From Candidatus Poribacteria bacterium (GTDB taxonomy: Bacteria > Poribacteria > WGA-4E > JAJDTR01), in NCBI GenBank assembly GCA_965197465.1, contig OZ240209.1, positions 3,965,174-4,029,173 of the forward strand: a DNA stretch of 64,000 nt. Direction: 5' to 3'. Under the pieces are notes generated by a model. It saw only the letters and a program-made list of their open reading frames with translations. It searched no databases and was not told the origin of the DNA. Below are positions 1,999-41,740 of the stretch, piece by piece. Position numbers and translations under genes: made by a program. The stretch's first letter is position 1. Every line of letters begins with the position of its first letter.

Positions 1999-4019
1999 GA
2001 ATCCAGGGCTACTCTTATGAACAAGTCACTGTAGAAGATGTGCAAACCCATCTTTATCCACATCAAGCCGCCATGTACAACGAATGGTCCAATCACACCG
2101 GATTCCTACTCGTGACCAAAACAGGGAGTGGCAAAACACGGGCGACAGCGTTACCCGTACTGAAAAACCATGAATCTGCTGTTTTTGTCTACCCCACAAA
2201 CGCGCTGATTCAAAATCAATCACGGGCTATTCAGCAATTGATGGATGACGAGGGAATAACATATCGGGCGCGGACGCCGGAAACAGCAAACGAAAGGGTG
2301 GGAACTGAAGAATATGAAATCGTTCAAATTAGCTCCCTGACGCTCGCAGCATTTGCAAAGGCGTGGAGAATGGGTGAAAAGCAAAAAGGGGACGCATTGA
2401 TAAAACTAATTGGTCAAGAGAAACGTAAAATTGTATTGATTAACCCCGATATTCTTTATCTTCTGTACTCTTTGCGCTACCGTGGCAGTCCAGAAGTTTT
2501 GTCACATTTTCAAGCATATAAGACCATTGTATTTGACGAATTTCATCTCTACAACGGAGTTGAACTAGCCCACGCGCTTTTCCTCATTTTTTGGGCACAA
2601 CGTATGGGTGCATTCCAACGGGTTGTGTTGCTCTCTGCCACTCCGAATGAAGAGGTCAAAACCTATCTAGATCGACTGCTCAGCCCACTTGTCATTGATG
2701 CTGATGTAACAGTCCCACAACCTATCTGTGGCGAGCGCACGGTCGCCCATGATGTAGAACTCAATGCCTTGCCGGTTGCTCGGGATGTCGTCGAAACAGC
2801 ACAATCAAAGGTCCTTGAACTTCAGAGCAAACTATACCAACTCCAAGCAGAAAACCAAGAAGCAAGCAACACAGAAGATTATGTGCCTTGTGTCGTTATC
2901 CTCAATTCGGTCGTCAACGCCATCGCGCTGGAAGACGCTCTCGTTGAGGCGGGGATACCACGTACAGAAATCGCACCAATTCGCGGGCTTTCAGCACGGA
3001 GTAGTCGAGACGTGAGAGGCAGGATGCTTGTCATCGGTACCGCGGCAATCGAAGTTGGAATCGACTTCAAAACTGACTATCTGATTTTTGAGGCGGGCAA
3101 CCACGCATCGTTCATACAGCGATTTGGACGGCTTGGAAGACATAGCATCGGACAGGCGTTCCTACTCGCTACTCCGCGTGAATGTGAAGCGGTAAAATCA
3201 CTTGGAAATGATATTTCCCGGGACGCTCTAGAGGAGGGTGTCAAAACCATCTATCCCGGACAGGATGCGAAGGGATGGTTTGTTGATACGCTTTGCGGGG
3301 CGTTTACGATACTCGCCCAAGCCGAGAACTTTCGCAGTAGGATTATCGACGATTGGTCTGCTGATGAAACGGTGAAAACTGAAATTGAAACATGGCTAGA
3401 TGCTGCTCTGACAGACTATGCAACAAAGATGCGTCTAACTCAGATGAAACGTGCTCGCTTGAAACTTCGACGTAATCCCACGTGGTTTGAACATTACAAA
3501 GCATTGGACTCATTTCGGACATCGTTACCAAGCATTGAAGTTTGGGATGCACGCGAAAAATTTGAACGCGGGCGAGAACCGTACTACACCGTAGATTTGA
3601 AAACACTTTTAACACGTACGACGGTTCACTGGTCCGAAAAGTATCAGCGAATGGAAGTGAAAAAAGGCTACGATAAATGGCATCAGGTTAATCTGCTAAA
3701 GTCGTTTGATGATGAACATGAGGATGAATGTTGTGGCATGTTTCGGACAACTGCTGATTATCCGAACGGAGAGATGCAATTCATGCAAGAAGGTCATTTG
3801 ACATCGGTCTCACATGTGATGGCAAAACAGAAGTACAAAGAACGTGTTACCGGCCATCTGTTTGTTCTCGCACCGGAAGATTTACGCTACTACTTGGACT
3901 GGCGACTAGCGTGGTTTAGATGCGGATCGCGTGGGAAATTCATCATTGCATTTGATGGGGACGCGCTTTTACTGAAAGCAATCTACGATCGAACAGTGAA
4001 AATGAGAGACGGTACGTAA
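1995..4019 (+). CDS. cas3: Cas3' superfamily-2 helicase, helicase-only with no HD nuclease domain
   Basis: Walker A TKTGSGKTRA sits near the N-terminus, so there is no room for an N-terminal HD. DExH box is VFDEFH. Motif VI is QRFGRLGR. 674 aa. Confidence 0.85.
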   Translation: MRIQGYSYEQVTVEDVQTHLYPHQAAMYNEWSNHTGFLLVTKTGSGKTRATALPVLKNHESAVFVYPTNALIQNQSRAIQQLMDDEGITYRARTPETANERVGTEEYEIVQISSLTLAAFAKAWRMGEKQKGDALIKLIGQEKRKIVLINPDILYLLYSLRYRGSPEVLSHFQAYKTIVFDEFHLYNGVELAHALFLIFWAQRMGAFQRVVLLSATPNEEVKTYLDRLLSPLVIDADVTVPQPICGERTVAHDVELNALPVARDVVETAQSKVLELQSKLYQLQAENQEASNTEDYVPCVVILNSVVNAIALEDALVEAGIPRTEIAPIRGLSARSSRDVRGRMLVIGTAAIEVGIDFKTDYLIFEAGNHASFIQRFGRLGRHSIGQAFLLATPRECEAVKSLGNDISRDALEEGVKTIYPGQDAKGWFVDTLCGAFTILAQAENFRSRIIDDWSADETVKTEIETWLDAALTDYATKMRLTQMKRARLKLRRNPTWFEHYKALDSFRTSLPSIEVWDAREKFERGREPYYTVDLKTLLTRTTVHWSEKYQRMEVKKGYDKWHQVNLLKSFDDEHEDECCGMFRTTADYPNGEMQFMQEGHLTSVSHVMAKQKYKERVTGHLFVLAPEDLRYYLDWRLAWFRCGSRGKFIIAFDGDALLLKAIYDRTVKMRDGT

Positions 4020-4049
4020 ACGTCCAATGAACTTTGACTGATTCACCTC

Positions 4050-4373
4050 CTAACGCTGCGCTTCCATATACGCACGCAAAACGGCGTTCATGCCGGTCTC
4101 GTCGCCTTGGCCGTGGGAGTTGAACCACACGAGCACGTAGCTATCGACGCGAAGCGAGATGGCGTGTTTGGGTTGGGGTATCACGACGTGGGCATCTTTC
4201 CAGAATGCTTCATCGGTGGGTTGGGCGTCGGGGTCCGCTGCCGCTGCCGCATCAATCTCTGCCTCGGTCATAGTCGCGACCTGCTCCCAATCTGTTTGTG
4301 TGTCTTTCGGGAGGTTATCAAGCGAAAATCTCACGGTATGTTCTTCCTTCACGGCGGTTTGCCTTGTCGCCAA
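4050..4373 (-). CDS. BrnA-family (COG3514) type II antitoxin-like protein with no cognate BrnT, encoded antisense inside the cas operon
   Basis: The C-terminal half matches the BrnA signature: TDWEQVATMTEAEIDAAAAADPDAQPTDEAFW...ISLRVDSYVLVWFNSHGQGDETGMNAVLRAYMEA. Start is TTG. No RelE/BrnT-like ORF is found in any frame within the 150 nt upstream. Confidence 0.6.
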   Translation of the reverse strand: MATRQTAVKEEHTVRFSLDNLPKDTQTDWEQVATMTEAEIDAAAAADPDAQPTDEAFWKDAHVVIPQPKHAISLRVDSYVLVWFNSHGQGDETGMNAVLRAYMEAQR

Positions 4374-4526
4374 GGTAGATTATTTGGGGGTCCTCTGAAT
4401 CAACCTTTATCTCGGAGAGGACTTCACTGTAGGAGCGATCTCCAGGTCGCGATTCCCTACTAAAGTATACCTGAAATTCAAGGCTCACGCAAGAATTTAG
4501 ACTACCCCGTATAGTTATCTCTTAAA

Positions 4527-4558
4527 GAAACCGAGTTTTGGGGAAAAAACTCGGTTTC
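4527..4558 (+). promoter_or_regulatory. Second copy of the GAAACCGAGTT/AACTCGGTTTC palindrome, between the brnA-like gene and cas1
   Basis: Same arms as at 1185-1215. The spacer is TTGGGGAAAA. It ends 23 nt before the cas1 RBS. Confidence 0.4.
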
Positions 4559-4592
4559 GTTGAACGTCCGTTACTCTTGCAGGAGGAAGAAA

Positions 4593-5696
4593 ATGAACCA
4601 ACTCACCATCTCCGACTACGGCACATCTCTCGGCAAACGCTCGGAGCGCGTCAGCGTGCGATACCGCGGGGTGGAGCGGGAGAAGGAGGAGCACGCCCTC
4701 ATGGATCTGGATCAGATTGTCATCGCTTCGCGCGGGGTTAGTCTGTCGTCGGATTTGATTGAGGCGTGCACCGAACGCGGGATCGAAATCTCGTTTCTCA
4801 GCTTCAGCGGCAAACCGTATGCGAAACTCAACAGCCCTTCGTTGACGGCGACGGTCATTTCTCGGCGCGAGCAACTCGCCGCGTACCACGATGAGCGCGG
4901 GGTAGAGATTGCCAAACGGTTCGCGGCGGGTAAGTTACGGAATCAGATAAACCTGGTACGCTATTTCGGCAAGTACCGCAAGAAAAGCGCACCCAAGAGA
5001 TACGATGAACTGACGGAGCGGGTTACCAAGATTGAGGGACTGATGGACGATATTCAGGCTCTCCAAGCGCCAAACGTTGAATGGAACGGAGAATCGCCGA
5101 TTGATGCCGTCCGTACCACCTTGCTCAACTTAGAGGGCCGCGCCGGGGCGCTCTACTGGGAGTGCGTGCAACGGCTGCTGCCCGCCGGGCGATTCACGAC
5201 GCGGAATCATCAGGGCGCGACGGATGATGTCAACGCACTGCTCAACTACGGCTACGGGATGCTCTACTCTCAGGTCTGGAGCGCGCTCGGGCTGGCTGGA
5301 CTGGAACCGTTTGCGGGTTTTCTGCACGTCGATCGCCCGGGCAAACCGTCGCTGGTGTTGGATTTTATCGAGGAGTTCCGTCAGCCGATTGTTGACCGGG
5401 TCGTGTTTGCGATGATTAACAAGAAATTCAAGGTCGAGTGGGAGGAGCCGGATGACGACGCCGCCAAATCCGCGCACCAGTCCGCAAACGCGGAGGCAGA
5501 CGTGGGTACGCAACGCTATCTGAGCAAAAGCACGCGGCGCGCGTTTGCCGATCGGGTGCTGGAGCGCCTTCAGGAGACGGAGCGGTTCGAACGCAAAGAC
5601 CAGAAGTTGTGCAACATCATCCAGATTCAAGCGCGTCATCTGGCGATGTTCCTGCGCCGCGAACGGGATTATCAGCCATTTGTCTCTAGTTGGTGA
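4593..5696 (+). CDS. cas1: Cas1 integrase
   Basis: Cas1 hallmark NALLNYGYGMLYSQVWSALGLAGLEPFAGFLH...SLVLDFIEEFRQPIVD. AGGAGGA RBS at 4581-4587. The ATG at 4593 is preferred over the upstream start in the track. Confidence 0.9.
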   Translation: MNQLTISDYGTSLGKRSERVSVRYRGVEREKEEHALMDLDQIVIASRGVSLSSDLIEACTERGIEISFLSFSGKPYAKLNSPSLTATVISRREQLAAYHDERGVEIAKRFAAGKLRNQINLVRYFGKYRKKSAPKRYDELTERVTKIEGLMDDIQALQAPNVEWNGESPIDAVRTTLLNLEGRAGALYWECVQRLLPAGRFTTRNHQGATDDVNALLNYGYGMLYSQVWSALGLAGLEPFAGFLHVDRPGKPSLVLDFIEEFRQPIVDRVVFAMINKKFKVEWEEPDDDAAKSAHQSANAEADVGTQRYLSKSTRRAFADRVLERLQETERFERKDQKLCNIIQIQARHLAMFLRRERDYQPFVSSW

Positions 5697-5773
5697 ATTG
5701 ACATGCACACCTACGTCATTTACCTTCAAACGCCCGTAGGAGGGGCATCTTGCCCCGAGTTTCCACAATTGAC

Positions 5774-6025
5774 ATGCACACATACGTGATTTACGACATC
5801 GTCGAAGACCGAATCCGCAAGAAGATCGCCGATGTCTGCCTCGACTACGGCTTGAAGCGCATCCAATACAGCGCCTACTTGGGGGATATCAACACCACGC
5901 GGCGGCGGGCGTTGGATGCAAAACTAACGCAGGAATTTGGCGAAGCGGAGGGAAAGATTGAAGTCCTCTCCGTGTGTGCGAAAGATTTCGACCAACGCAC
6001 CATTATCGGGGATGCTGAAAGATGA
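5774..6025 (+). CDS. cas2: Cas2
   Basis: 83 aa. MHTYVIYDIVEDRIRKKIADVCLDYGLKRIQYSAYL matches the Cas2 N-terminal beta1-alpha1 pattern. Its stop overlaps the cas4 ATG (ATGA). Confidence 0.75.
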   Translation: MHTYVIYDIVEDRIRKKIADVCLDYGLKRIQYSAYLGDINTTRRRALDAKLTQEFGEAEGKIEVLSVCAKDFDQRTIIGDAER

Positions 6026-6594
6026 ATATACGGGTCAGCGACATCAAACAGTACTTCTACTGTCCGCGGGTGGTCTACCACACCTACTTCACGCCGGTGC
6101 ACCGTCCGACGACGCACCCGATGCAGCTCGGCGCTGTTGAACACGAAGTGTTAAGTGTCCTTGAACGCCGTCGAACCCTTGCCCGCTACGGACTTGAGGC
6201 TGGCAGTCGCAAGTTCCATGTCTCACTCCACGCCCCGGATCTCGGATTAACTGGCGTGCTCGACCTGCTTATTGAAACCGAAACTGGCGCGTTTCCCGTC
6301 GAGTTCAAGAGCACGAGACAACGGCTGGACCTGAACGCAAAGTGCCAGTTGACAGCATACGCGATGATGGTGGAGGAGTGCCTGGGTGTCGCCGTGACTC
6401 AAGGGTTTATCTACCGGATTCCCACGGAACGAATCACGCCGGTAACGATTTCAGAGTCGCTCCGCGAGAAAACGCGGAACGCTCTCCGGGACATCCGACG
6501 AATGTTGTCGGACGAGTGGATGCCTCCGCCGACTCCGCAGCGCGGGAAATGCGTCGAATGCGAATTTCGGCGATTCTGCGCGGATGTGTTGTGA
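6022..6594 (+). CDS. cas4: Cas4 RecB-like nuclease with a 4-Cys Fe-S cluster
   Basis: N-terminal YCPRVVYH Cys plus C-terminal C-x2-C-x5-C (CVECEFRRFC). Nuclease motif LDLLIETETGAFPVEFKST (D-x-E-x-K). It is adjacent to the array leader. Confidence 0.85.
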   Translation: MNIRVSDIKQYFYCPRVVYHTYFTPVHRPTTHPMQLGAVEHEVLSVLERRRTLARYGLEAGSRKFHVSLHAPDLGLTGVLDLLIETETGAFPVEFKSTRQRLDLNAKCQLTAYAMMVEECLGVAVTQGFIYRIPTERITPVTISESLREKTRNALRDIRRMLSDEWMPPPTPQRGKCVECEFRRFCADVL

Positions 6595-7011
6595 GGCAGC
6601 CAACTAAAATCGTTGCGTTTCGCAAATCCGTTTTCTGCGGAAAAAGTGGGTCAATTTGCGAAATCTTTGTAAAAAGCCTGAAACGCTGGTGAGACGCGGG
6701 ATGCGCCTCTCTGCCCGTGGACAATCGTGGACTTTACAGAAGGGACGGCGTCGCATTTCAGATGGATCTCAACCCGATTTGCGATAGGCTAGGTCGAGGT
6801 TCCGTGTGCCCCGAGCGATGTTCGGGGACAAACTAACGATTTTCGAATATCCACACGTAAATCCCCCAAACACTGATGAACACTGAATATGTGGCGCCCG
6901 CTCCGTTTGAAATTGACAGGGCAACGCCGATGTGTCAAAATTATAAACATGGCGTACAAACGCAGGTTTCTACTATGTTTAGACCCGTTTCGGCTACTGA
7001 TTAGGAGGTCG
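6595..7011 (+). promoter_or_regulatory. CRISPR leader
   Basis: 417-bp non-coding stretch between the cas4 stop and the first repeat. The array's degenerate repeat is at the opposite end, so this is the leader side. Confidence 0.5.
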
Positions 7012-10000
7012 GTAGCAGTGAGTGCCGCGATGAAAAGCGGACTGAAAGCGCTCCACTGTCTCACCCCTCCGAAACCTCAACCAGTAGCAGTGAGTGCCGC
7101 GATGAAAAGCGGACTGAAAGCCTATGTACCCACCGCCACATAACGTAGTCCTCGCGTAGCAGTGAGTGCCGCGATGAAAAGCGGACTGAAAGCCGTCTCT
7201 CGGTTCATTAAATCTTCGGCATGGGTCAGTAGCAGTGAGTGCCGCGATGAAAAGCGGACTGAAAGTCACTAACAAGTCTTCGTTGAAACAACCGTTGAGA
7301 GTAGCAGTGAGTGCCGCGATGAAAAGCGGACTGAAAGAACTCACCGAAACACGGGACATCTATGTTGAAGTTGTAGCAGTGAGTGCCGCGATGAAAAGCG
7401 GACTGAAAGAGATGTCACGTCTGGTATGGACGTGGGAATGATATAGTAGCAGTGAGTGCCGCGATGAAAAGCGGACTGAAAGCGGACGCATTTCGTGCAT
7501 TCGTACAACAACGTCATGTAGCAGTGAGTGCCGCGATGAAAAGCGGACTGAAAGACGCCCACCGACCTCGCCGTTGAGATTAGCCAGAAAGTAGCAGTGA
7601 GTGCCGCGATGAAAAGCGGACTGAAAGTTAACCAGAACCGCCTAGGCGACGCCCGCGCAGAGTAGCAGTGAGTGCCGCGATGAAAAGCGGACTGAAAGTC
7701 CGAGCAACGACACACCGGACACTCAAATCCTATTGTAGCAGTGAGTGCCGCGATGAAAAGCGGACTGAAAGAGAAAACGATAATCATTACAACATCGCCG
7801 TTTTTAGTAGCAGTGAGTGCCGCGATGAAAAGCGGACTGAAAGAGTTTTCAAAAGCAATTAACTCCACATCCAGCGGCCTAGTAGCAGTGAGTGCCGCGA
7901 TGAAAAGCGGACTGAAAGTCTGACCGAACCGCAGCGCAACCTGTTTCGGACTGTAGCAGTGAGTGCCGCGATGAAAAGCGGACTGAAAGTGGCGCATGTT
8001 GAAAGCCGGCTACCGAACACGATTACGTAGCAGTGAGTGCCGCGATGAAAAGCGGACTGAAAGGTTGGCGTCCATACCGCCCATAATAGCCCCAATCTAA
8101 GTAGCAGTGAGTGCCGCGATGAAAAGCGGACTGAAAGCGCCCAGCGCTTCGGCGTCCACACCGGTTTGCAGTAGTAGCAGTGAGTGCCGCGATGAAAAGC
8201 GGACTGAAAGTCCGTGCCCCCGGCTGACCATGACACACCGGCGGCGTAGCAGTGAGTGCCGCGATGAAAAGCGGACTGAAAGGAGGATAAATCGAAACTG
8301 GAGGATAAGGCATATAAAGTAGCAGTGAGTGCCGCGATGAAAAGCGGACTGAAAGGCGCGCGCCGCCAAAACAGTGCCGCTGCGTTAATGTAGCAGTGAG
8401 TGCCGCGATGAAAAGCGGACTGAAAGGCTATACCAACTGATCCGCAGTTGGTTGAATCAGGGTAGCAGTGAGTGCCGCGATGAAAAGCGGACTGAAAGCG
8501 TCTACATGGATATCGGCAAGGATTACACGGGTTGTAGCAGTGAGTGCCGCGATGAAAAGCGGACTGAAAGCTAGGCTGTTGAACCCGTTCTTTTCCTCTC
8601 CACCGTAGCAGTGAGTGCCGCGATGAAAAGCGGACTGAAAGATCAACCAATCGACACTGACCGCCATCTACAGCGCGGGTAGCAGTGAGTGCCGCGATGA
8701 AAAGCGGACTGAAAGATTTCCGCGCGAGACGCCTTCATCTCTTTCAGCACTGTAGCAGTGAGTGCCGCGATGAAAAGCGGACTGAAAGCTTCTATGCTTG
8801 TCGTATAACCGTTTCCGTAGCTATGGTAGCAGTGAGTGCCGCGATGAAAAGCGGACTGAAAGCCCTCCGGGTCGTCCGGGTCGGCAATGCCGCCGTAGTA
8901 GCAGTGAGTGCCGCGATGAAAAGCGGACTGAAAGACTCGCCAGTGTGTTCATGCGGCAATCCAAGGCATGGTAGCAGTGAGTGCCGCGATGAAAAGCGGA
9001 CTGAAAGCCGTCTATAGATTAGCGAGCAGCTCCTCGAGGAAACGACCGGTAGCAGTGAGTGCCGCGATGAAAAGCGGACTGAAAGTTCTACAACACGAGT
9101 CCTGACACTTCGCTGATTTGCGTAGCAGTGAGTGCCGCGATGAAAAGCGGACTGAAAGACCCCGTCGGGGGGATTCACCGAGACGCGTTACGCGGAGTAG
9201 CAGTGAGTGCCGCGATGAAAAGCGGACTGAAAGGCGGTCACGCGCATTCAGATATGTTCTCACTTCGGTGTAGCAGTGAGTGCCGCGATGAAAAGCGGAC
9301 TGAAAGGCGTGTTGAATCCACTGTCAATCCCGATGCCGGAGTAGCAGTGAGTGCCGCGATGAAAAGCGGACTGAAAGATGCAGCTTGGGCATGTGCAGAC
9401 CCAGGAGTTCAGGTAGCAGTGAGTGCCGCGATGAAAAGCGGACTGAAAGACGAATACAGTATACAGGAGAGGGGCTTCAAGCACGTGTAGCAGTGAGTGC
9501 CGCGATGAAAAGCGGACTGAAAGCCGAGCTAGTTACAGTTGCCGATCAGATGAGTGCCATGTAGCAGTGAGTGCCGCGATGAAAAGCGGACTGAAAGCCT
9601 AAATGTCACACCCTCAGAAGTTTGTCTTGGTAGGTAGCAGTGAGTGCCGCGATGAAAAGCGGACTGAAAGTCCATCATCGTAGCCTTTAACCGATACTAC
9701 CCCGCTGTAGCAGTGAGTGCCGCGATGAAAAGCGGACTGAAAGTAATTCCTGTATGTCTTGATTCATTCTATCTCCCTAGTAGCAGTGAGTGCCGCGATG
9801 AAAAGCGGACTGAAAGTGCTACGAATATCATGTGCTATTCCTTTGGCATTTAGTAGCAGTGAGTGCCGCGATGAAAAGCGGACTGAAAGTAAAGTATATG
9901 TGAACATACCGCCTACATACATTGTAGCAGTGAGTGCCGCGATGAAAAGCGGACTGAAAGGTCGAAGTGCGCTGGGGAGTCATCGCCAAGTTTACCGTAG

Positions 10001-10844
10001 CAGTGAGTGCCGCGATGAAAAGCGGACTGAAAGGTAGGCAAAGTACCTGTGGTAACAGTGTAAGCCGAAGTAGCAGTGAGTGCCGCGATGAAAAGCGGAC
10101 TGAAAGCACGCCCATTCCTTGCTTGAAGCGCACTTGTCTTGGGTAGCAGTGAGTGCCGCGATGAAAAGCGGACTGAAAGAGTTATGACGCCGCTTGAAAC
10201 GGACACTGGCATGGTGTAGCAGTGAGTGCCGCGATGAAAAGCGGACTGAAAGTTTGTTACAAACTTACTAGACGATTTATGATGGTCTATGTAGCAGTGA
10301 GTGCCGCGATGAAAAGCGGACTGAAAGACAATCGCACGAAGTAACACGGCTTTAGTTTGTCGTAGCAGTGAGTGCCGCGATGAAAAGCGGACTGAAAGGT
10401 TTTCTTGTAATGAGAATTGGGGTAGATTTCAGAGTAGCAGTGAGTGCCGCGATGAAAAGCGGACTGAAAGATGTGGCACGAGTTTATATTCATGCAGACC
10501 GGACGGATGGTAGCAGTGAGTGCCGCGATGAAAAGCGGACTGAAAGATGTGGCACGAGTTTATATTCATGCAGACCGGACGGATGGTAGCAGTGAGTGCC
10601 GCGATGAAAAGCGGACTGAAAGTCTATGTACAAAATCTGGGCACGAGTGCATAACCAGTAGCAGTGAGTGCCGCGATGAAAAGCGGACTGAAAGATGTGG
10701 CACGAGTTTATATTCATGCAGACCGGACGGATGGTAGCAGTGAGTGCCGCGATGAAAAGCGGACTGAAAGGATAAGCGGCAAAACGGTGAACATCAATGA
10801 GGGCAGGGTAGCAACCATTGCCCCGATGAAAAGGATCAAGGGAG
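7012..10844 (+). CRISPR. CRISPR array of 52 identical 37-nt repeats plus one degenerate terminal repeat at 10808-10844. Spacers are 34-41 nt.
   Basis: All repeat starts were enumerated by hand, from the first at 7012 to the last at 10734. The repeat contains a CCGC/GCGG stem with GATGAAAA loop and an ACTGAAAG 3' handle, like Cas6-processed I-D/III-type repeats. Spacers at 10471-10509, 10547-10585 and 10695-10733 are identical. Confidence 0.97.
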
Positions 10845-10959
10845 CGGATAGCGACTGCGATAGCTAGTACAGCGGCGTTGTTTAGGGGCTTGGCATGTAA
10901 CGCTCATACCACTGGCCAAAAGCATCAAGCGAAACGGCAGTCGCCAGCTGGAGGACTCT

Positions 10960-11215: not shown

Positions 11216-14020
11216 ATGCGAACAATACGAATACTACTCACCATATTCCTTCTTGCCCCCCTCCCCGTCTTCGCCGCTATCACAGTCGTCGACGACCAGT
11301 TGCACGTCGACACGGCAGCCTACACCGTTCTATTCGACCGCGGCACCATCACTCAACTCCATAACAAGCGCACCGGCGAAACCCACACTCTCGCCCCCGG
11401 CGCCAACCCGAATCCGGGGTTTAGTAAGCAGACTGCCATCGTAGGCCGGGGTAATATCAAAGATTGGTCGCCCCGTTGGGATGCCGACATACAGATAAAC
11501 AAAATTACTGACCACCACGCTGACATTGTATTTCGAAAGGGCGGGAACGCGATAACACTGTCAATCGGCATCGACCCCGCCAACAACGACCTGCTTATCG
11601 GAGGACAGGCTGTATCCGCGATACCCGGCGTTATTGGTATCCAATGGTCTGTCGAAAACCTTGATCTCCATAACCTTAGCCTCATCATCCCATCTCAAGG
11701 GATACAACAAATCGACGCCTCCTCCGCTATCGAACACCGCAACTTTCCATATCCCGACACATTCCGCTGGGAAGCGCAGCTTGCTATTATAGAATCCCAA
11801 CTCGGCGGGTTCTACGTCCGAGGCACCGATACAACCTTCCGATTCAAAGAACTAAATTATCAGCGCGACGATACCAGTTTCGGGCTCGTGTTCAAAACCA
11901 TAAATCAAGCGCCGTGGGATAGCCTCACATCAGCCAAGTCCGTCACCTGGCGCCTCAATACCTACGTTGGAGAGTGGTGCGTTCCCGCTCAAATACACCG
12001 CGACTGGATGGAACAGGCGTTTAACCCCTGGCGTCTTAGCGACGTACCGGCGTGGGTCAGTGATATCGGCTTGGTCGTTTTCCTCACGAAACTGGATACG
12101 GAACAGCTGAACGCGGTGGAAGCCTTGGCACAGCACGTTGAACCGACGCAAACGCTTTTCTATCTGACAGATTGGCGCAAATACGAGAACGATATCATGC
12201 ACCCGGATTTTACCGCCATTCACCATAATTTTGAAACGTTTCTCGAGGTCGCTCGGCGGTACGGATACCGGATTATGCTGCACGTTAACCTTCATAACTG
12301 CTCGCCGACCCATCCGCTCTATGCGGAATTCAAGCAATACCAAATACGACATCCCAACGGCGAACTGTCCGGCTGGAGATGGGACGATATTGATCATCCG
12401 GACCGGAATGCGCACATCAGTCTCGGCAGTTCGCGTTGGCGCAACCTGCTTATCCGACAATTCAAGGCGCTAAGGGACAAATACGCCATAGACGCCTTTC
12501 ATCTTGATGTGAGCCACTACATCGTCAACGACGGCAACGGTTTGGTCGAAGGTCTTACCAGCGCCGAAGCGAGCGTGCTGATGCACCGGCAGTTGATGGA
12601 AGCCATGCCGGGCGTGGTGCTTGCCGGTGAACACCTCCACGAAGTCACGTTTTTCCGCGAAAGTATCGCACAACGCAATTTATCGGAGCATGCCACACAC
12701 CCGCTCAGCGCCTTCCTCTTTGCCCCGTACACCCGGTTTATGGGGCATCTTGGATTTCCGCGTGAACACAATCCCCAGCGCCTCCGATACGCGATCCAAT
12801 TTTACGAACGTCAAGGTACTCTACCGACCGCGCGAATATCGAACGAAAGCCTATTACACCAACCGATCACCCGGGACATACTCGCTGTTGCACGCCAGTG
12901 GCAAGCGTTGAAGTTGACGCCTGATATCCACTGCCATTGGTGCGAAAATACCCTATTCCAATATACCACGGACAACGGCGAGAGTGTGACCTACCAAAAG
13001 GTCGACGGCGTATATTCACTCAATATACCCGACGGTAACGGATACCGGCGAGTGCATGGCGTCACCCAAGCCGCTACCCGGTGGAGCCTCCCCGAATGGC
13101 GCGCGTACAATGAAGAGATGCTTCTCGGTCTGGATCCGAACAAATACTATTCGCTCCGCAATGCGCCGCGCGATGTCTCCCAATTACACATTAACGCGCT
13201 TTCCCCGGGTGTTTACGTGGCAGAGACCCGCGTAACACCGCAAGCCGCCGTCTTTCGACTCGAGTCGACCTCCGGGGTTAGAGACACCTCTGTAGATATG
13301 TTCCTTCCAATGCCGCCGCTTGCAAGTGTTCCAAAGACACTTGTCTCCGTAGCCGGCAATCACTACCGTATCGACACAAATCTATCCCGACCTATCGTAA
13401 TCATACTCGCCGCGCCGCGCATTCGCCTGCCCTATAATTTAAGAGACTATCCGTTTATCGCCGGATTGCAACAGAGCGGTATCTTCCGAGTCGGAAGCCA
13501 CCACGGATCCGGCGAACGTATGACAGCGACCCTTGATGGTATCCATAAAGAGACCATCTTTGCCCACCCGCCTAAAACTGACAAAACAATTCTCCAATTC
13601 GTGTTTACGCTGCCCGAATCGCCGTCAACCCTTTCATACTCGATGGGGTTAGCCGGAGAACACAGCAAGGGCGTTCTGTTTGAAATCCGCCTTAACGGCC
13701 AGACGCACGTTAACTTCTTGAAGGATACCTTCGACTGGACGGACGGCAGTATCTCGCTTGACGAATTTGCGGGCGAACCCGTACTATTGGAATTTGTGAC
13801 AGACCCTGGGGACAGCTCGGACTACGATTGGGCGCATTGGGGGGATTTGATCATTACCGCTGACACGAATCCAGCCGATGTAAACGGGGACGGCATTGTC
13901 AACATCCTCGATTTGACGCTTGTGGCTCAAGCGTTCGGAATGAGTAGTGCGGCGGCTGACGTGAACGGTGACGGCGTCGTGAACGTTTTCGATTTGGTTT
14001 TTGTGGCGAACGCTTTTTAG
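11216..14020 (+). CDS. Secreted 934-aa putative glycoside-hydrolase-like protein with a C-terminal type-I dockerin
   Basis: Signal peptide ILLTIFLLAPLPVFAA. The C-terminus has two dockerin repeats DVNGDGIVNILDLTLVAQAFG / DVNGDGVVNVFDLVFVANAF. AAGGAGA RBS. Confidence 0.7.
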   Translation: MRTIRILLTIFLLAPLPVFAAITVVDDQLHVDTAAYTVLFDRGTITQLHNKRTGETHTLAPGANPNPGFSKQTAIVGRGNIKDWSPRWDADIQINKITDHHADIVFRKGGNAITLSIGIDPANNDLLIGGQAVSAIPGVIGIQWSVENLDLHNLSLIIPSQGIQQIDASSAIEHRNFPYPDTFRWEAQLAIIESQLGGFYVRGTDTTFRFKELNYQRDDTSFGLVFKTINQAPWDSLTSAKSVTWRLNTYVGEWCVPAQIHRDWMEQAFNPWRLSDVPAWVSDIGLVVFLTKLDTEQLNAVEALAQHVEPTQTLFYLTDWRKYENDIMHPDFTAIHHNFETFLEVARRYGYRIMLHVNLHNCSPTHPLYAEFKQYQIRHPNGELSGWRWDDIDHPDRNAHISLGSSRWRNLLIRQFKALRDKYAIDAFHLDVSHYIVNDGNGLVEGLTSAEASVLMHRQLMEAMPGVVLAGEHLHEVTFFRESIAQRNLSEHATHPLSAFLFAPYTRFMGHLGFPREHNPQRLRYAIQFYERQGTLPTARISNESLLHQPITRDILAVARQWQALKLTPDIHCHWCENTLFQYTTDNGESVTYQKVDGVYSLNIPDGNGYRRVHGVTQAATRWSLPEWRAYNEEMLLGLDPNKYYSLRNAPRDVSQLHINALSPGVYVAETRVTPQAAVFRLESTSGVRDTSVDMFLPMPPLASVPKTLVSVAGNHYRIDTNLSRPIVIILAAPRIRLPYNLRDYPFIAGLQQSGIFRVGSHHGSGERMTATLDGIHKETIFAHPPKTDKTILQFVFTLPESPSTLSYSMGLAGEHSKGVLFEIRLNGQTHVNFLKDTFDWTDGSISLDEFAGEPVLLEFVTDPGDSSDYDWAHWGDLIITADTNPADVNGDGIVNILDLTLVAQAFGMSSAAADVNGDGVVNVFDLVFVANAF

Positions 14021-17063: not shown

Positions 17064-17798
17064 GTGCGAGATTATGGTGATTTTGTCCGAAGATTACAGG
17101 GGTTGAGTTTGCCCAATTTACAGCAAGATACGCTTGGCGAGGTCGATGGCTACACTATCTATCGTCTGCAGTTCGGGGCCGCCTCTCGTGTGAAGCGGCA
17201 GGTCTTGATAACCGCCGGCCTCCATGGAGATGAGCCGGCCGGGCCCGAAGCGGTTCTGCGGTTCTTGCACGAATACGACGCAACACGCTATGACGACTTC
17301 AGATTTCTCGTCCTTCCTTGCATCAATCCGTACGGCTATGTCCACAATACGCGCGAAAACAGGACGGAAATAGACCTCAACCGTGTGTTTGAAGCCGACA
17401 ATCCGCCAGAGGAAGCTCGTCTCGTCAAAACTGCGGTCGAGGGCAAACGATTCGATTTCGCAATAGATTTTCACGAGGATTGGGAAGCCGCCGGATTTTA
17501 CTTCTATGAGGGACGCAAAAGTGAGAACTGGATTGGGCCGGAGATCATCCGGAACGTCGAAAGCGTTGGCCCAATCGACCGGGAGAACGATGAAAACGAC
17601 TTGCCGATTGCCGATGGTGTGTTTAAGGTCGATCCCGGCTGGGGGCGACAAGGGTTTACCCCCTACCTGCTCGCTTTTCACTCCCACCACGTGATGATTT
17701 GCGAGACACCTATGAGTTGGCCCATGCACCAGCGCACCGCGGCTCACCTGAAGGCACTGGAGACGGTGTTGGCTCATTACGATCAACTGAGCGGATAG
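17064..17798 (+). CDS. Succinylglutamate desuccinylase/aspartoacylase (M14-like zinc hydrolase) family protein
   Basis: ITAGLHGDEPAGPEAVLRFL zinc-ligand region typical of the AstE/AspA family. Confidence 0.55.
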   Translation: MRDYGDFVRRLQGLSLPNLQQDTLGEVDGYTIYRLQFGAASRVKRQVLITAGLHGDEPAGPEAVLRFLHEYDATRYDDFRFLVLPCINPYGYVHNTRENRTEIDLNRVFEADNPPEEARLVKTAVEGKRFDFAIDFHEDWEAAGFYFYEGRKSENWIGPEIIRNVESVGPIDRENDENDLPIADGVFKVDPGWGRQGFTPYLLAFHSHHVMICETPMSWPMHQRTAAHLKALETVLAHYDQLSG

Positions 17799-17977
17799 CG
17801 AAGGCGATAGCTAATCCCGATAGAAAATTCTTCTCACTATTCTTTCGCTTGATCGCTCGATCTATTCAGTCGTTTAATCTTTTCCAGAGGTGTTGGGTTT
17901 CACTCAAATGTCCGTACTTTCGGGCGAAATGAAATCTCGACAATCATCTTCTGTGTGTGGTTTTTCCCAGTTTTCCG

Positions 17978-18262: not shown

Positions 18263-21200
18263 ATGGCGACATCCGCATTCGTGCATCTTCATAATCATAG
18301 TGAATACAGCTTGCTTGACGGCGCATGTCACATTGATGGCATCGTTGATTGGGCTGCTGAACAGAGCGTGCCTGCCGTGGCGCTGACGGATCACGGTAAC
18401 ATGTTCGGCGCGTGGGAGTTCTACAAGAAGGCGAAGGATAAAGGGGTCAATCCCATCGTGGGTTGCGAGGCTTACGTTGCCCCGCAGAGCCGACACGAGC
18501 GCGGACGAGAACAGGGGAGCGCCTATCACCTGACGCTGCTTGCGGAAGATGCCACCGGCTATCGCAACCTTATGAAGTTGGTTTCAATCGGTTATCTGGA
18601 AGGGTTTTATTCTAAACCTCGAATCGATATGGAAATCCTACGCGAACACCGTGATGGCATCATCGCATTGACAGGGTGCATCCAGGGGTATGTCCCGGCG
18701 CTATTGGCATCTAACCAGCGCGAAGCGGCAATGAAGAACTTTCAACTGCTGCAAGACGTTATGGGGCGTGATAATCTGTACGTCGAGGTTCAGAATCACG
18801 GCATTGCTGAGGAGAAAAGCGCTTACAAAGTGATGATGCAACTTGCTCAAGAGCACGGTCTGCCGATCGTTGGGACGAACGACTGCCACTACCTTAACAG
18901 GTCGGATCACAGGATGCACGATGTGTTGCTTTGTATTCAGATGAAACGCACGGTGGATGAGGAAAATCGCATGCGCTTCCTCAACGAATTCTATTTTAAG
19001 AATATTGATGAGATGCACGAAGCACTAAAGGATTTTCCGCCCGAAGCAATTACGAATACGCTCGAAATTGCCAATCGTTGCCAGCTAGAGCTCGACTACG
19101 GCGAACATATCATGCCGAAATACGAAGTTCCCGAGGGTTTCACGGCGGATTCGTATCTCGCCAAGCTCTGCGCGGAGGCGCTCCGGGAGAAGTATGGTGA
19201 AATCTCGACGGAGATGAGTAAACGACTCGACACTGAGCTTGAAGTCATACAGAAGACAGGGTACGCCGGTTATTTGCTGATTGTGTGGGATTATGTCAAC
19301 TTTGCCCGAAGGCAGAAAATTCCCTTCGTTGGTCGTGGATCGGCAGGTGGAAGTTTGGCGATGTTCGCGCTTGGCGTGACGACCTTCAATCCGTTAGACT
19401 ATGATTGCCTGTTTGAGCGATTCCTAAACCTTGAACGAGTCACCATGCCTGATATTGACATCGACTTCGGAGATGAACACAGGAAAATTGTTATCGACTA
19501 TCTAACGGAGAGATACGGTTCGGAGTGCGTCGGGCAGGTGGCAACCTTCAGCACCTTCGCTGCAAAAGCCGCCGTTACCGATGTCGGACGCGCGCTCAGT
19601 ATGGAGATGCAAGACGTGCGCCGAGTGACACAGCAAATTCCAGTCGTTCCGGGCGTCACGTTAGACGAGTCATTGGCGGACGTTCCGCGATTCCGAGAGC
19701 TTGCTGAAGCGCCGGAAAACCGGGATATGATGGCGGTTGCCAAATCGATCGAGGGAATGAAGCGGCATGTCTCCATTCACGCCTGCGGGATTGTATTGGC
19801 AAACGGTCCGCTTACCGACTATGTTCCACTTTTCAAAGACAAGAACGACCGTGTTGCAACACAGTACAATCTCAAGACTCTTGAAGATGTTGGCATGGTG
19901 AAATTTGACTTCCTCGGCCTGCGAACCCTAAGTGAAGTCCACCACTGTCTCGCGCAGGTTAAGGAGCGGCACGGGGGTGAGCTTACGCTTGAAACCATTC
20001 CACTTGATGACGAAAAGACGTATCAGGTCATCAGTGCAGGTTTGGTCGCCGGGCTCTTCCAGTTAGAAACCTCGCCGGGCATGCGGCGCGTCACGATGCA
20101 AATCAAACCCAACAACTTCGAGGATTTCGTCCCCATTTCTGCGCTTTACCGTCCGGGGCCCCTTGATAGCGGCATGATGGACAAGTTCATTCGCCGAAAG
20201 CTTAAGGTTGAAGCCGTGACTTATCTTCACCCGACACTGGAAGATGCCCTGAAAAACACCTACGGCGTCTGTATTTACCAAGAGCAGGTAATGCAAATTG
20301 CGCGGGATATGGCGGGCTTTACGCTTGGGGAAGCGGACGTTCTGCGCGATGCGATGGGCAAGAAGAAAATGGACGTGCTCAAAATGCAGCGCCAGAAATT
20401 CATTGAAGGCGCCCGAAATAATGGAATTGACAAGCAAAAGGCGGGCGAGGTTTTCGACTATCTCGAACCGTTCGGCCGATACGCCTTTAACCGCTCGCAC
20501 ACCGTTGCTTATGCGATTATGTCTTATCAGACGGCATATCTCAAAACGCACTATCCGCGTGAATTCATGGCGTCGATGATGAGCGGGGAGTCGGGTTCCA
20601 GTGAGAAGATTGTGAAATATATCGCCGAGTGCCGACAGCTATCGGAATTTCTGGACATAAAAATGGACGTTCTTCCGCCAGACGTGAATAGCAGCGGTTG
20701 GGACTTTACCGTTGATGGAGAAGACATCCGATTCGGATTGGCTGCTGTCAAGAATGTCAACGAAGGGGCGATTGAGTCTATAGTCAAGACTCGTGAAAAA
20801 GATGGCTCATTCACATCGCTGCAAGATTTCTGCGAGCGCGTCGATGCGAAGGCGGTCAGTAAACGGGTGATTGAAAGCCTTATAATGGCGGGAGCATTTG
20901 ATTCATTTGAAGAAGGACACCGAGCGCAGCACTTTGCCAACTTGGAACAGGTGATGCAGGTGGCGCAGTCTGCGCAAGCGGATCGTGAGAAGGGGCAGAT
21001 GAATCTTTTTGGCGCCGCGGAGCAGGAACTGCCGGTTACCGAGCCTGTTCTTGATGAAGTATCGGAGTGGGAACATAATGAGGTGCTCAAGAACGAGAAG
21101 GAGCAGCTCGGTTTTTATCTTTCGGGGCATCCGTTGGAAGCGTACGATGATGTCCTTGACAATTTTACAACCGCAACGTCGCAAACCCTTGCCGAGAATC

Positions 21201-24180: not shown

Positions 24181-26244
24181 TCAAAATGCATTGGCTACGA
24201 ACACAAGGTCAAACACATTGACAACCCCATCCCCATTCATGTCCGCCTCCAAACTATCCGTCCCAAACCCCTGCGCCACCAGCGTCAAATCCAAAATATT
24301 CACCACTCCATCGCCGTTGACATCGGCGGGATTCTTCGGCTTTACCCGCAGATACATCTCCCCGTCGAGGTTCGGTAGCGCGTGCTCCGTGTCCACCGAG
24401 CCACTGGCTACGCCCTGCACCTCCTCCGGCAGCGTTATTACCTGTGCCTCTCCACTGTGATTGTACACCGCCCACCCATTCGTAAACTCGCGGATATAGA
24501 GACCGGGGATGTCTTCGTCGTAGAGCTGGGCTTTGGGACCAACGGAGCGGCCGAGGTTGGCGTCCCAGAAGTCGTACCAGTAGTGACCATGGTATTGCTC
24601 CGCCCGAAAAAGTACGTAGCCGTCGGAATGTGTTAGGCTGAGAGCTGTGGCGGCGCGCATCCAGCGCAGGCTTGATGGGCTGTCAGGGGTCTCCGAAGGT
24701 TGAATATGCGCTTGAAGTCCGTTTATTCTGGGTTCGCGCAGATTGTTTTCGAGCCAAAGCAGAGCCTTTTCAACTCTGTTGACTGTCTCTTCAAGTTCGT
24801 CGCCTGTTCGGTCAAAAGGCATACCGGTTTCCATAAACCCGCCGTTGACGTAGGCTCCTGTTCGCGGGAGTATCCGCTCATTGGTATTGCCCATTATTAG
24901 AAAGTCGGGGCGTGTGGAGGCACGGATGCGGCGAATAATGTTGAGACGTGCGGCTTGCTCGGCTTCATTCCCGCGAAACTTATGCGACCAGTCGCCATCA
25001 AAATCTGCCAAAATAGCGTCATCATCAGTTCACCAATCGAAAAAAATACCGTCATATAACCCGCACTTCGCAACGGCTATAGCTTCCTCGACGATGATGT
25101 CTTGAACGTCAGGGTGGGTAAAATCCCATAATTAGGTGCTTCCTTGAGAAACCGGTTGGCCGTTCGCGTCCTTTACCCAATAGTGAGAATCGTCGGGAAA
25201 CTCGCCTTGTGTGCGGGTCCGCAACGCCAGTTGCAAAAGAAAAACCATATTGGGATTTATGGCGATGAAATCGTCGCGTGTTTGCACTCCGCGGTCGAGC
25301 TCACCTTGAACAGACCATCCTTTAGCAGTGGGTACGAGGTGAACATGGAATAGTGACGGCCTCCCAACATGTAAATCGTGTTGCGCCAACTGTTCCAGAT
25401 CGGACAGATGCGGCTGGTTAAGAACCGTGCTGTGGCCGATGCTGCCCCAGGCCGTAAAAACCGAGGGGAAGGTTCTGTTTTCCAGGTGAGGCCGAAGCGG
25501 GAGCGGCGGAAGGTCGCATTGCTGATCATAGATAAAATGATCAAGGGATATTCCATCAAGTGGAGAATGGTCAGCGATTCGGTTGCCGTGGAGTTCCAAA
25601 CGCTCAAGCGAAGTGAGTTCCGAAAGAGGGCTGACGTCAGTAATCAAATTGTTAGTCAGAAGTAATTCAGTTAGCCGTGAAAGCCCGGCAAGTCGGCTGA
25701 TGTCGACGATTACATTGAATCGCAGATCGAGTGAGGTAAGTTTGGTTAGTGAGGCAAGCGGTGTGATGTCGTCGATGTCGCACGCGCCGAGGTATAGGAG
25801 TTCTAGTCCGGTTAGATTGGATAAAGGCATCAGGTCTGATATTGGATTCGACCACAACTCGAGAAGCTTCAACTTCGCCAGTCCAGCGATAGGTCGGAGG
25901 TCGGTGATTCCATTATTGGCAAGTCGGAGTTTTCGTAGATTCACGGCGTATTCAATGCCAGTGAGTTCTTGTATCTAGCGGTTTGAAGCGACGATGGCGG
26001 TTAGATCCTGCATGGCGTCCTGTGTAACCGGAACGGCGCCGGGTAGAGCCAGAGTTTCGCGAATTGCAGCGTGGAGGTTCAGGTCGGGTATCTCGACGAC
26101 TTGTGCGAATGCGACGCTGCACTGAACAATATAAAGCAAAAAACTGAGTGCAATTGTCCGTCTGAATTTCACCAATCTTTCCCTCAAATCATGAATGGTC
26201 TCCCGACCCAACAAAACAGAACAACCGCTCCATATACTAGGCAC
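24181..26244 (-). pseudogene. Signal peptide-LRR-glycoside-hydrolase-like-dockerin gene with three in-frame stops. Its C-terminal two-thirds is paralogous to the 11216-14020 product.
   Basis: ORFs 25975..26244, 25132..25944 and 24181..25011 are all in one frame. Across the stops the translation reads ...AIVASNR-TAG-IQELTGIEYAVNLRKLRLANNGITDL... (LRR continuity), then ...QGST-TAA-LWDFTHPDVQDIIVEEAIAVAKCGLYDGIFFDW-TGA-TDDDAILADFDGDW... LAQH and W.D..HPD motifs are shared with the 934-aa protein. It ends in dockerin repeats. Confidence 0.55.
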
Positions 26245-35919: not shown

Positions 35920-35970
35920 TTGGTGTCTCCTCCTATACCATACGGCTAAAGTAGGGCAAGCAAATTGGCT

Positions 35971-38119
35971 TTACTTCCTTATCAGCATTTTCCGTGTCGC
36001 CGTGAACTCGCCGGCCCTCAGCGTGTAAAAATAGAGACCACTGGCGATAGACTCACCACGCTGATTACGACCATCCCAATAGGCAGCGCGGTTGCGGCTC
36101 TGATACAGCCCCGCCGCTTGATGCCCCACCGCCAAACGCCGAACCATCTGCCCAATCATATCATAGATTGTCAGCGCCACCTCCGCGGGGGCTGCCAACT
36201 GATACGGTATCCAGGTTTCCGGATTAAACGGATTCGGATAGTTGGGGTGCAACGCCGTCTCTTTGGGAATAATCAGCGAGGCTAACAGGTTTTCCAAATT
36301 CGCAATGCCCTGTCGAAAAGCAATCGAACCGTCATCTTCGAGGCGTGCCTGTGCAATCCATGCCTCTATCACCGCTGCATCGGCGCGCCCCATCGCAACC
36401 GCGGGTGCAGTGGCTGAGGTAGTTTTGCCAATCCCCTGCGCTACAAGGGTGAGATCAAAAATGTTGACAACGCCGTCGCCATTGACATCGACGGACGAGC
36501 CAGCAGCCACGGTTCTCCCCAACTGCCGTGCAACCAGAATCAGGTCCAGAATATTGACAACCTCGTCACGATTCACATCCCCGGTCAGCAGTCGTTCCTT
36601 CACAGTGATGTGAGTTTCATGCGGTCCCGCCGGGATGTTTTCCCCAGTGAAAGAGCCGAATAGGAAGTTCTCCAGTACTAAACTCGTTTCGCCATCCGAC
36701 TTCGCATTGAACCTCACCTGAAGGATGGTGCCGCTGCCATTCACCCCGCGGTTGGAGAGCAGTGCAGACTTGAGTTCTGTGATTTTACCTGCTGCATTGT
36801 CAATGCGCCCACTCTGGAAGAAAGTCGCTCCGCCGTCAGCCTTCAGGAAGTCGCCTTCGCTCAGGTCAATTGCTTCGAGTATAGCAGGGTCGAACGCTAT
36901 ATCAAACTGCCACCCCGCCAAGTCGGAGACGTTTTTTGCACGGACATCTAAGGTAAAGGTATCGCCGATGTGAATTGGCAGCTTGGAAAAGGCGTATCCG
37001 ACACCACTTGTCACCGTATATTCGGTGCCGGGCTCAAACCCAAAAAAGCCGTTAGCAAAGGTTTGAACCGCGACTAACAAAACATTTCTTCCTTGCTGCA
37101 GCGTGACTGAGTAAAAATCAGTGTAATCCTCACTACCCTCCCTATCCCAGTGGCCGTGCTGGTGAATCTAAGCCCCGTTGAGCCAAACCTTCAGCTCGTG
37201 ATCGCTGCCGACGTACATGGTTGTGTCCTGCTGGCGTGGTGAATAGAGGGACACAGAGCCGTAAATGACGGCGTCAGGGATGGAGCGTTTCAGCATATCT
37301 TCAATGTTATTCTTGCCCGTAGGTGGGGGTATGTGGAATTTCCACATACTACTGCCTACCGAGCGTCCTGCAGTTGCACCGTCGGTAGCCACCCCCACTT
37401 CTGTCGCCGTGCCACCACTTGCTTCTGATAGCAAATCCGTGCCACTATCTAGTCTTGTATTCGGCAATACGACCCATAACCATGGTCCCTCTATTTTCGG
37501 ACCTCCTTTTGGGAAACCCGGGTTGCCGTGCCAAATGAACCTTCCGAGATTTTTGCGAAACTCTGTTATCTGTTAAAGGGGAAAAATCAGATATTTTGTT
37601 GTATTGGAGTTCCAACCTTTCTAGATTTGTTAACCCGGTTAAAGGAGATATATCTGATATTTCGTTGTATTCGAGTCGCAATTCTCCTAGTTTTGCTAAT
37701 CCCGCCAAAGGAGACACATCTGATATTTTATTTATTGCAATGCTTAGAACGTTAAGGTTTGTTGACATTTAAAGGGGCACAATGTCAGCTACCTAATTGT
37801 GGACAAGATCTATGACCTTTAATTTCGTTAACTGGCTAATAGGTTCAAGGTTAGATTCCTTATTGTCGTGAAGTTTAAGGACTTCTAAGTTGGATAACTT
37901 GACAAGGGGCGAGAGGTCTGTGACTTCGTGATGTCGAAACTCAATACTTATTAGTGTTGTCATGTCGGCTACAGCTGAAATTTCTGATATACCTTCACCA
38001 TAAAAACGCAGTCTTTTCAAATTCGTTAGACCGGCTATCGGTGAAATGTCTGTTATGTTGCCGCGGAATTCTAGTTGTTCCAGTTGTGTTAAGTTTGCCA
38101 AGGGAGATGAATCTCGCAC
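35971..38119 (-). pseudogene. Decayed multidomain gene: LRR repeats, LamG-like beta-sandwich, cohesin, dockerin, T9SS-type C-terminal sorting domain. It has three in-frame stops and one 7-bp tandem duplication that shifts the frame.
   Basis: ORFs 37793..38119 and 37445..37768 share a frame, interrupted by TAG (37793-95) and TAA (37769-71) inside conserved LRR positions. The duplicated TCTGTTA at 37562-37575 shifts into the frame of 37168..37467 (...WHGNPGFPKGGP...SDHELKVWLNGA). That frame runs through TAG (37168-70) into 35971..37080, which carries the cohesin (DVRAKNVSDLAGWQFDIAFDPAILEAIDL), the dockerin (DVNRDEVVNILDLILVARQLG, DVNGDGVVNIFDLTLVAQGIG) and the CTD (NYPNPFNPETWIPYQL...GLYFYTLRAGEFTATRKMLIRK). 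Confidence 0.5.
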
Positions 38120-38248
38120 GCGCGTATCCCAACCTCCAAAAAAATCAGTTTTGCACAGCTGGCAAGCGGAGACAGGTCCTTGAAATGCCTCATGGAAACG
38201 TGAAATCGGTTCACCTCTGCCGATGTCACAAACCTAAATAGGTACTAA

Positions 38249-38348
38249 CGGTAGGTGCGATCAAGTGACCGAATAGGATCAAACGACCGAATAGGGAGTG
38301 CGATAGTAGATCCCACGCGATAGAGATCCCTCTAACCGCACCGATGAC
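38249..38348. repeat. GATCAA/GCGATAG mosaic element, near-duplicate of 22000-22095
   Basis: CGGTAGGTGCGATCAAGTGACCGAATAGGATCAAACGACC...GCGATAGTAGATCCCACGCGATAGAGATCCCTCTAACCGCACCG. It has inverted termini CGGTAGGTGCG / CGCACCG and four GATC sites. Confidence 0.65.
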
Positions 38349-41589: not shown

Positions 41590-41740
41590 AAGAAATCGCA
41601 ACCGGGAAGGGAACTCTATCGCACTGGGAACTCTATGCGATTTCTATCGTGCTCGTTATTTACTCGCTTGATTCCTCGCTATCTGCTCGGTTGATCTATT
41701 CGGTCGCTTGATCGCTCCTACAGGTACCTACACCTGTAGG
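41590..41740. repeat. GATCAA/GCGATAG mosaic element in reverse orientation, plus the palindrome CCTACAGGTACCTACACCTGTAGG
   Basis: GGGAACTCTATCGCACTGGGAACTCTATGCGATTTCTATCGTGCTCG...CGCTTGATCGCTCC. A 9-bp-arm inverted repeat lies at 41712-41735. Confidence 0.55.

Follow-up and report, generated by a model that had tools for sequence, protein, structure and literature searches.

The window analysed here is a 64,000-nt stretch of Candidatus Poribacteria DNA in which rpsA, metK and ahcY are intact and stand in a gene order that is conserved in two relatives, Ca. Poribacteria contig CBDCTK010000002.1 (L006), whose MetK is 94% identical, and OY762266.1 (L007), whose MetK is 78% identical. Between a dispersed repeat and the ribosome-binding site (Shine-Dalgarno) of the SAM-synthetase gene metK lies the remnant of a large coding sequence on the minus strand. 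It spans about 38243-35971 and thus reaches beyond 38119, the limit given in the preliminary description. Two ENA assemblies from different samples, ERZ25072670 (L001/L002) and ERZ25072076 (L003), served for comparison; their contigs also carry MetK and the 369-residue open reading frame (ORF) of the remnant, and the locus is 99.7% identical to the window. The features are as follows.

38253-38343, no strand assigned: copy of a dispersed, REP-like intergenic repeat made of GATCAANCGANCGNATAG units, directly 5' of the remnant
38172-38243, minus strand: piece of an N-terminal haem-c-associated domain, ...GEPISRFHEAFQGPV; 53 bp are 85% identical to L006 20291-20343
38165-38179, minus strand: internal deletion junction, at about 38172, with GACCTGT microhomology; common to the window, L002 and L003
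37576-38178, minus strand: internalin-like leucine-rich repeat (LRR) region, about nine repeats of 22 residues (Pfam LRR_4 2e-26, LRR_8 6e-11)
38131-38132, minus strand: 1-nt deletion, TTT to TT; L003 reads GAG GTT TGG GAT (LEVWD, in frame), the window and L002 read GAGGTTGGGAT
37885-37883, minus strand: L003-specific stop, TAA where the window has GAA (Glu); a nonsense mutation that this sister strain acquired independently
37795-37793, minus strand: in-frame TAG at a variable LRR position (LVHN*VADIVPL); in all three assemblies
37771-37769, minus strand: in-frame TAA (PL*MSTNL) in the window and L002; AAT (Asn) in L003
37562-37575, minus strand: 7-bp tandem duplication, TCTGTTATCTGTTA on the plus strand (TCTGTTA twice), shifting the frame after ...KISDFSPLT; in all three assemblies
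36997-37560, minus strand: beta jelly roll resembling galactose-binding domains, with a conserved PKIEGPWLW motif
37170-37168, minus strand: in-frame TAG inside the jelly roll (KVWLNGA*IHQ); in all three assemblies
35971-37080, minus strand: open 369-codon tail with a TTG start, covering the last two jelly-roll strands, cohesin, dockerin and type IX secretion system (T9SS) type A C-terminal domain
36966-36676, minus strand: cohesin, residues 383-479 (PF00963, 43.8 bits against a threshold of 24.1)
36582-36436, minus strand: dockerin, residues 511-559 (PF00404 Dockerin_1, 42.0 bits against 22.9)
36562-36564, minus strand: dockerin Gly to Glu change (GAG) at the sixth position of the first calcium loop (DVNRDE); Gly in 108 of 108 aligned homologues
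36240-35980, minus strand: T9SS type A C-terminal domain, residues 625-711 (TIGR04183, 31.1 bits against a cut-off of 23)

Read base by base, the three in-frame stops and the TCTGTTA duplication are all where the preliminary description had placed them, and both LRR stops do occupy variable positions, namely x positions of the 22-residue repeat LxxLxLxxNxIxDIxPL. The stop in the jelly roll likely arose through a single TTG to TAG change, a step read back from the Leu of the homologues rather than seen itself. Across the alleles, the small lesions comprise four stop-creating changes against two small indels. When one copy of the 7-bp duplication is deleted, ...KISDFSPLT is joined to EFRKNLGRFIWHGNPGFPKGGPKIEGPWLW... 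and the conceptual protein has 713 residues, but the earlier proposal that a repaired ORF of about 710 codons would be the complete gene did not hold, since about 490 N-terminal codons, signal peptide included, are missing from the remnant and two further lesions lie upstream. Stop-codon reassignment, pyrrolysine insertion and readthrough were considered and rejected: TAG, TAA and TGA end 9, 8 and 11 of the 28 ORFs of the window, and the stops are polymorphic among strains.

The deletion at 38131-38132, the junction near 38172 and the missing 5' end are all additional to the preliminary description. Homology upstream of 38119 carries on in another frame: DLSPLASCAKLIFLEV resembles the homologues P0004 and P0016 (DLSPLTGCTNLIRLEAW), and it is continuous with WDTRVRDSSPLANL only with one T restored at 38131/38132. 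The LRR region carries this 1-nt deletion as well as two stops. At about 38172, the N-terminal-domain sequence FQGPV runs directly into the LRR sequence DLSPLASCAKL in a different reading frame, and comparison of the sequence with P0016, P0004 and the L006 ORF indicates that about 135 codons are deleted there relative to P0016 and P0001. The N-terminal piece at 38243-38172 also matches residues 264-280 of P0001 (tblastn), and its counterpart at L006 20291-20343 lies inside an intact N-terminal ORF (18830-21136). Upstream of 38243, tblastn against a 1.2-kb target gave no significant family homology; the best of the weak LRR-like matches had E values of 7e-4 to 2e-3, and the overhang crosses in-frame stops. 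The truncation boundary is marked by the repeat copy at 38253-38343. This repeat is present in at least nine copies in the 64-kb window (blastn), where its 18-mer occurs 18 times against 0.26 expected.

The domain content of the copy follows in most respects the order first proposed for it. LRRs (LRR_4 and LRR_8 in Pfam, residues 1-185 of the conceptual product), cohesin, dockerin and T9SS C-terminal domain are all confirmed by Pfam and NCBIfam, whereas the LamG-like domain is not: the region proposed to be LamG or concanavalin A-like matches LamG in neither sequence nor fold and is a beta-sandwich of the GH2-N/PA14 type. Residues ~185-372, which correspond to it, have no Pfam hit. We modelled the structure from an alignment of 31 homologues (pLDDT 87.7, pTM 0.85), and the model matches CBM35 and CBM6 and falls within the galactose-binding-domain-like fold class; as modelled, the jelly roll is a GH2-N/PA14-type galactose-binding-like domain. 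Sequence identity to GH2 N-terminal, PA14 and CBM35 domains is only 12-20%, and the PKIEGPWLW motif is specific to the family. The C-terminal domain also scores above threshold as FlgD_ig in Pfam (32.3 bits against 27) and below it as Por_Secre_tail (21.4 bits against 27). In the dockerin, the Gly to Glu change is common to the window, L002 and L003, and the second calcium loop, DVNGDG, is intact. As the preliminary description had it, the distal part of about 370 codons is open, for 369 codons from the TTG or 398 if counted from the TAG. No structured RNA or tRNA was detected in the window with Rfam at gathering thresholds and ARAGORN.

The copy belongs to a very large family. A search of 5.8 billion proteins returned more than 3391 homologues at E < 1e-10, and the top 120 (668-1238 aa) are without exception undisrupted, have the domain set seen here and are 58-67% identical. 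The search for intact paralogues that had been called for yielded many intact homologues and no close parent: in the protein search, whole-length identity does not exceed 67%, and identity in the C-terminal part does not exceed 75%. The stops and the frameshift do not interrupt the alignment with intact homologues, tblastn of P0001, P0004, P0016 and P0020 spanning all lesions; for example, residues 148-363 of P0004 match 38176-37514 (E 2e-63) and residues 359-892 of P0016 match 37569-35974. Because these homologues align straight across the lesions, the continuity of the reading reflects homology and not chance. The N-terminal ORF of L006 begins with a signal peptide and continues with PSCyt1 haem-c, some 400 residues that include a second CxxCH motif, and a linker that leads into LRRs. 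In the parent architecture, a Sec signal peptide and the PSCyt1 haem-c domain come first, followed by a second CxxCH domain, internalin-like LRRs and the jelly roll; cohesin, dockerin and the T9SS type A C-terminal domain complete the protein. Identity along the copy is mosaic, and its closest homologue differs by segment; P0001, for instance, is 88-95% identical across the cohesin and 52-70% in the jelly roll. Two other proteins of the window bear dockerins (11216-14020 and 24181-25011), and no T9SS machinery (PorU/PorV/Sov etc.) was seen among the window ORFs scanned.

The relatives suggest how the copy came to lie before metK. The rpsA-metK spacers of L006 (1060 bp) and L007 (1576 bp) are free of ORFs and gave no tblastn match to the family, and colinear anchors on both sides (window 38848 and L006 9344; the repeat at 38330-38277 and L006 9734-9783; window 35942 and L006 9978) show that the extra 2.25 kb of the window is exactly the pseudogene. 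From this sequence comparison, the parsimonious reading would be that a family copy, perhaps truncated already, arrived in this lineage only; alternatively, the gene could conceivably have been cleanly lost in both relatives.

Comparison among the three assemblies places the lesions in time. All three sequences (window, L002 and L003) carry the truncated 5' end, the deletion junction, TAG 37793, the 7-bp duplication and TAG 37168. Only the window and L002 have the 1-nt deletion and TAA 37769, L003 having AAT and an intact TTT. This combination of shared old lesions and lineage-private ones points to natural ongoing decay and not to assembly error. The different disabling mutations in sister strains further suggest that the gene was already dead in their common ancestor and has been drifting since. 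A decayed gene had been proposed from the first reading of this DNA, and that proposal is now strongly supported by the lesions themselves, by the homologues that align across them and by the shared and private lesions of the three assemblies.

We therefore consider it highly probable that an unprocessed pseudogene without function occupies ~38243-35971 (minus strand): a 5'-truncated and internally deleted copy from a very large family of secreted surface proteins of Ca. Poribacteria. The copy would have arrived as a truncated fragment, or would have shed its 5' end soon after arrival; it would have drifted neutrally since then, and no product of it would be exported. Conserved residues are largely intact and no close parent is known, which suggests that selection acted until recently and that the inactivation is young. 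The pseudogene mismatches 10 of 244 conserved columns; the intact homologues have a median of 6, and 18 of 108 have at least 10. This deviation is within the range of intact homologues, so that sequence alone cannot prove relaxed constraint.

The distribution of the lesions bears on whether part of the copy may still be in use. All six are confined to the 5' 47% of the remnant, so that the 1.2-kb tail is free of them, and the two halves offer targets of about equal size for nonsense mutation; by our estimate, this skew away from the tail has P of roughly 0.01-0.06 under uniform decay. The lesion-free tail leaves room for some constraint there. SNPs are few and clustered, and relative to L001 none falls within a 5.1-kb block containing the tail, so their absence from the tail is uninformative. 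According to an earlier proposal, translation from the internal TTG may still yield the tail (37080-35971) as a small, scaffoldin-like cohesin-dockerin protein with a C-terminal sorting domain. Its 369 codons are indeed open with every disabling lesion upstream of them, a weak AAGGAAG stands 9 nt before the TTG, and gene callers in two public assemblies annotated the tail as a gene. However, the product would begin with MLVAVQTFANGFFGFEPG, that is, in mid-strand, with two strands left over from the jelly roll (155-164 and 174-178 in the model). T9SS cargo must first cross the inner membrane via Sec, and the first 30 residues of the tail ORF include neither Lys nor Arg, hence no basic n-region and no Sec signal. 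Near 37080 there are no promoter-like sites, the site count being below the shuffle mean, and promoter and terminator signals for the tail are at or below shuffle expectation. The dockerin itself has Glu at the calcium-loop position that is Gly in every aligned homologue. These observations make expression of the tail improbable, and we do not retain the scaffoldin-like protein of the preliminary description.

Two further explanations can be weighed against decay, and we regard both as very improbable. The stops and the frameshift could be sequencing or assembly errors of a long-read metagenome, the real gene being intact: the related public contigs are of low coverage (10x and 22x in their names), other family genes on 6-7x contigs look split (e.g. 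a 1122-aa and 210-aa pair in contig L004), and the TTT/TT difference is a homopolymer-type change. Yet two substitution-type stops and a 7-bp duplication recur in three assemblies from different samples and are atypical of long-read error, repair of all point lesions would bring back neither the internally deleted codons nor the missing 5' third, and the neighbouring metK, ahcY and rpsA are undamaged. The second explanation is that the remnant serves as a silent donor cassette for gene conversion into expressed paralogues, as pilS or vls cassettes do, which would suit a huge and mosaic family and a copy without a 5' end or promoter. Such a role is hard to credit for a single copy with no array at the site, from which conversion would transfer the stops and the frameshift. 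Furthermore, no paralogue turned up that shares a nearly identical tract with the remnant (67% at best over the whole length), and new nonsense mutations are building up in the strains.

As a pseudogene, the copy resembles ordinary bacterial unprocessed pseudogenes in its multiple lesions, intact homologues, strain polymorphism and missing N-terminus. Nothing essential differs, apart from an unusual site directly before the essential gene metK.

Its domains recall several known systems. For cohesin-dockerin proteins, the comparison is with the clostridial and ruminococcal ScaA/ScaB-type proteins, and the copy, like cellulosomal adaptor scaffoldins and non-cellulosomal cohesin-dockerin proteins, has one cohesin and one type I dockerin per polypeptide. 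In contrast to cellulosomal scaffoldins, the host is a member of the Poribacteria and not of the Bacillota, a T9SS C-terminal domain replaces SLH or sortase anchoring, LRRs and a haem-c domain are part of the same polypeptide, and the dockerin calcium loop of this copy is mutated; any glycoside hydrolase partner would be hypothetical. The copy resembles T9SS type A cargo in its C-terminal 87 residues, which are those scored by TIGR04183, and in the LRR region upstream, for which the BspA-type proteins of Bacteroidota offer a comparison as LRR adhesins. It differs from such cargo in that the Sec signal peptide is absent from both the remnant and the 369-codon ORF, whereas it is present in the L006 ORF. 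With Listeria internalin A, the family shares the 22-residue LRR with NxIxDIxPL, and an intact homologue matches internalin A structures with E 3e-63, but the family lacks the inter-repeat Ig-like domain and the LPXTG motif. Identity as an internalin (NCBIfam NF033189, class 1) was rejected, internalin_A scoring 131 bits against a cut-off of 1600 and only the LRR region being common.

Intact members of the family would be exported through Sec and then translocated by the T9SS. They would be attached to the surface by the C-terminal domain, the LRR and jelly-roll domains may bind ligands and glycans, and cohesin-dockerin pairing may chain them to other dockerin-bearing proteins. A bolder proposal is that this thousands-strong family of free-living Poribacteria forms a self-chaining, T9SS-displayed cohesin-dockerin mesh at the surface, with truncated promoterless copies perhaps kept as recombination substrates for mosaic diversification. 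We consider it quite improbable. A fusion of haem-c, internalin-like LRRs, lectin-like jelly roll, cohesin, dockerin and T9SS anchor may be undescribed; our literature search on cohesin, dockerin or T9SS in Poribacteria gave no relevant result, including on the combination of cohesin-dockerin with a T9SS anchor.

For biology at large, the importance of a textbook pseudogene is small. The sister strains, with their different sets of nonsense mutations, have caught it at a useful moment of its decay. The 369-residue tail has been deposited as a predicted protein in public collections, which means that pseudogene fragments of this family contaminate protein databases. The abundant intact family would be a better study target than the dead copy.

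Upstream of metK (window 35920-35971), homology to L006, a related Candidatus Poribacteria genome, is limited to ~23 bp before the start, and the pseudogene stands in place of the remainder of the 195-bp metK upstream region of that genome. Because so little of the L006-type upstream region is left, the metK promoter here must lie either within the 51-bp spacer or inside the pseudogene. The spacer holds a weak candidate promoter, TTGCTT-15-TATGGT.

The 5' breakpoint of the pseudogene is marked by one copy of a dispersed intergenic repeat, which is REP-like and is made of GATCAANCGANCGNATAG units, often with GCGATAG...GATCCC after them. There are 18 matches in the window against 0.26 expected, located on both strands and almost all intergenic, at the following positions:

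10834, 10983, 14116, 15216, 17781-17879, 18075, 21838
27032, 31663, 33027, 38259-38294, 41679-41713, 57562, 62659

The repeat also occurs in L006, and in the window copies of it adjoin the degenerate end of the array of a CRISPR-Cas locus (1995-10900), which comprises:

1995-4019, Cas3-like helicase
4560-5696, Cas1
~7012-10900, CRISPR array with ~53 copies of the repeat GTAGCAGTGAGTGCCGCGATGAAAAGCGGACTGAAAG, one every 72-73 bp

One spacer of this array is present in duplicate (10434-10585).

In L003, the locus from ENA assembly ERZ25072076, a 547-bp insertion (7290-7838) lies directly past the rpsA stop, at the site corresponding to window 39243, and is found neither in the window nor in L002, the locus from ERZ25072670. 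The insertion has an ~88-bp flanking duplication and carries, on the opposite strand, a 69-codon fragment which we take, from its motif, to be the putative C-terminus of an IS5-type DDE transposase.

A further decayed secreted gene occupies 24181-26190 on the minus strand of the window, its signal peptide, LRRs, GHL15-like domain and dockerin sharing one frame that is interrupted by three in-frame stops:

25977-25975, minus strand, TAG
25134-25132, minus strand, TAA
25032-25030, minus strand, TGA

All three are kept in the L001 allele (ERZ25072670), which differs from the window at 13 further sites within 24834-26135, a span that includes every stop.

Members of the surface-protein family that gave rise to the pseudogene form tandem arrays on L004, a contig of 7x coverage that comes from the same study. 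One neighbouring member there (2971-6985) is broken into a 1122-residue piece, running from the LRRs to the cohesin, and a 210-residue piece with the dockerin and C-terminal domain; it is either a second pseudogene or a low-coverage frameshift. In the window, an intact 934-residue protein (11216-14020, plus strand) combines DUF6259 with a type I dockerin at its C-terminus, and this protein is a possible partner of the cohesins of the family.
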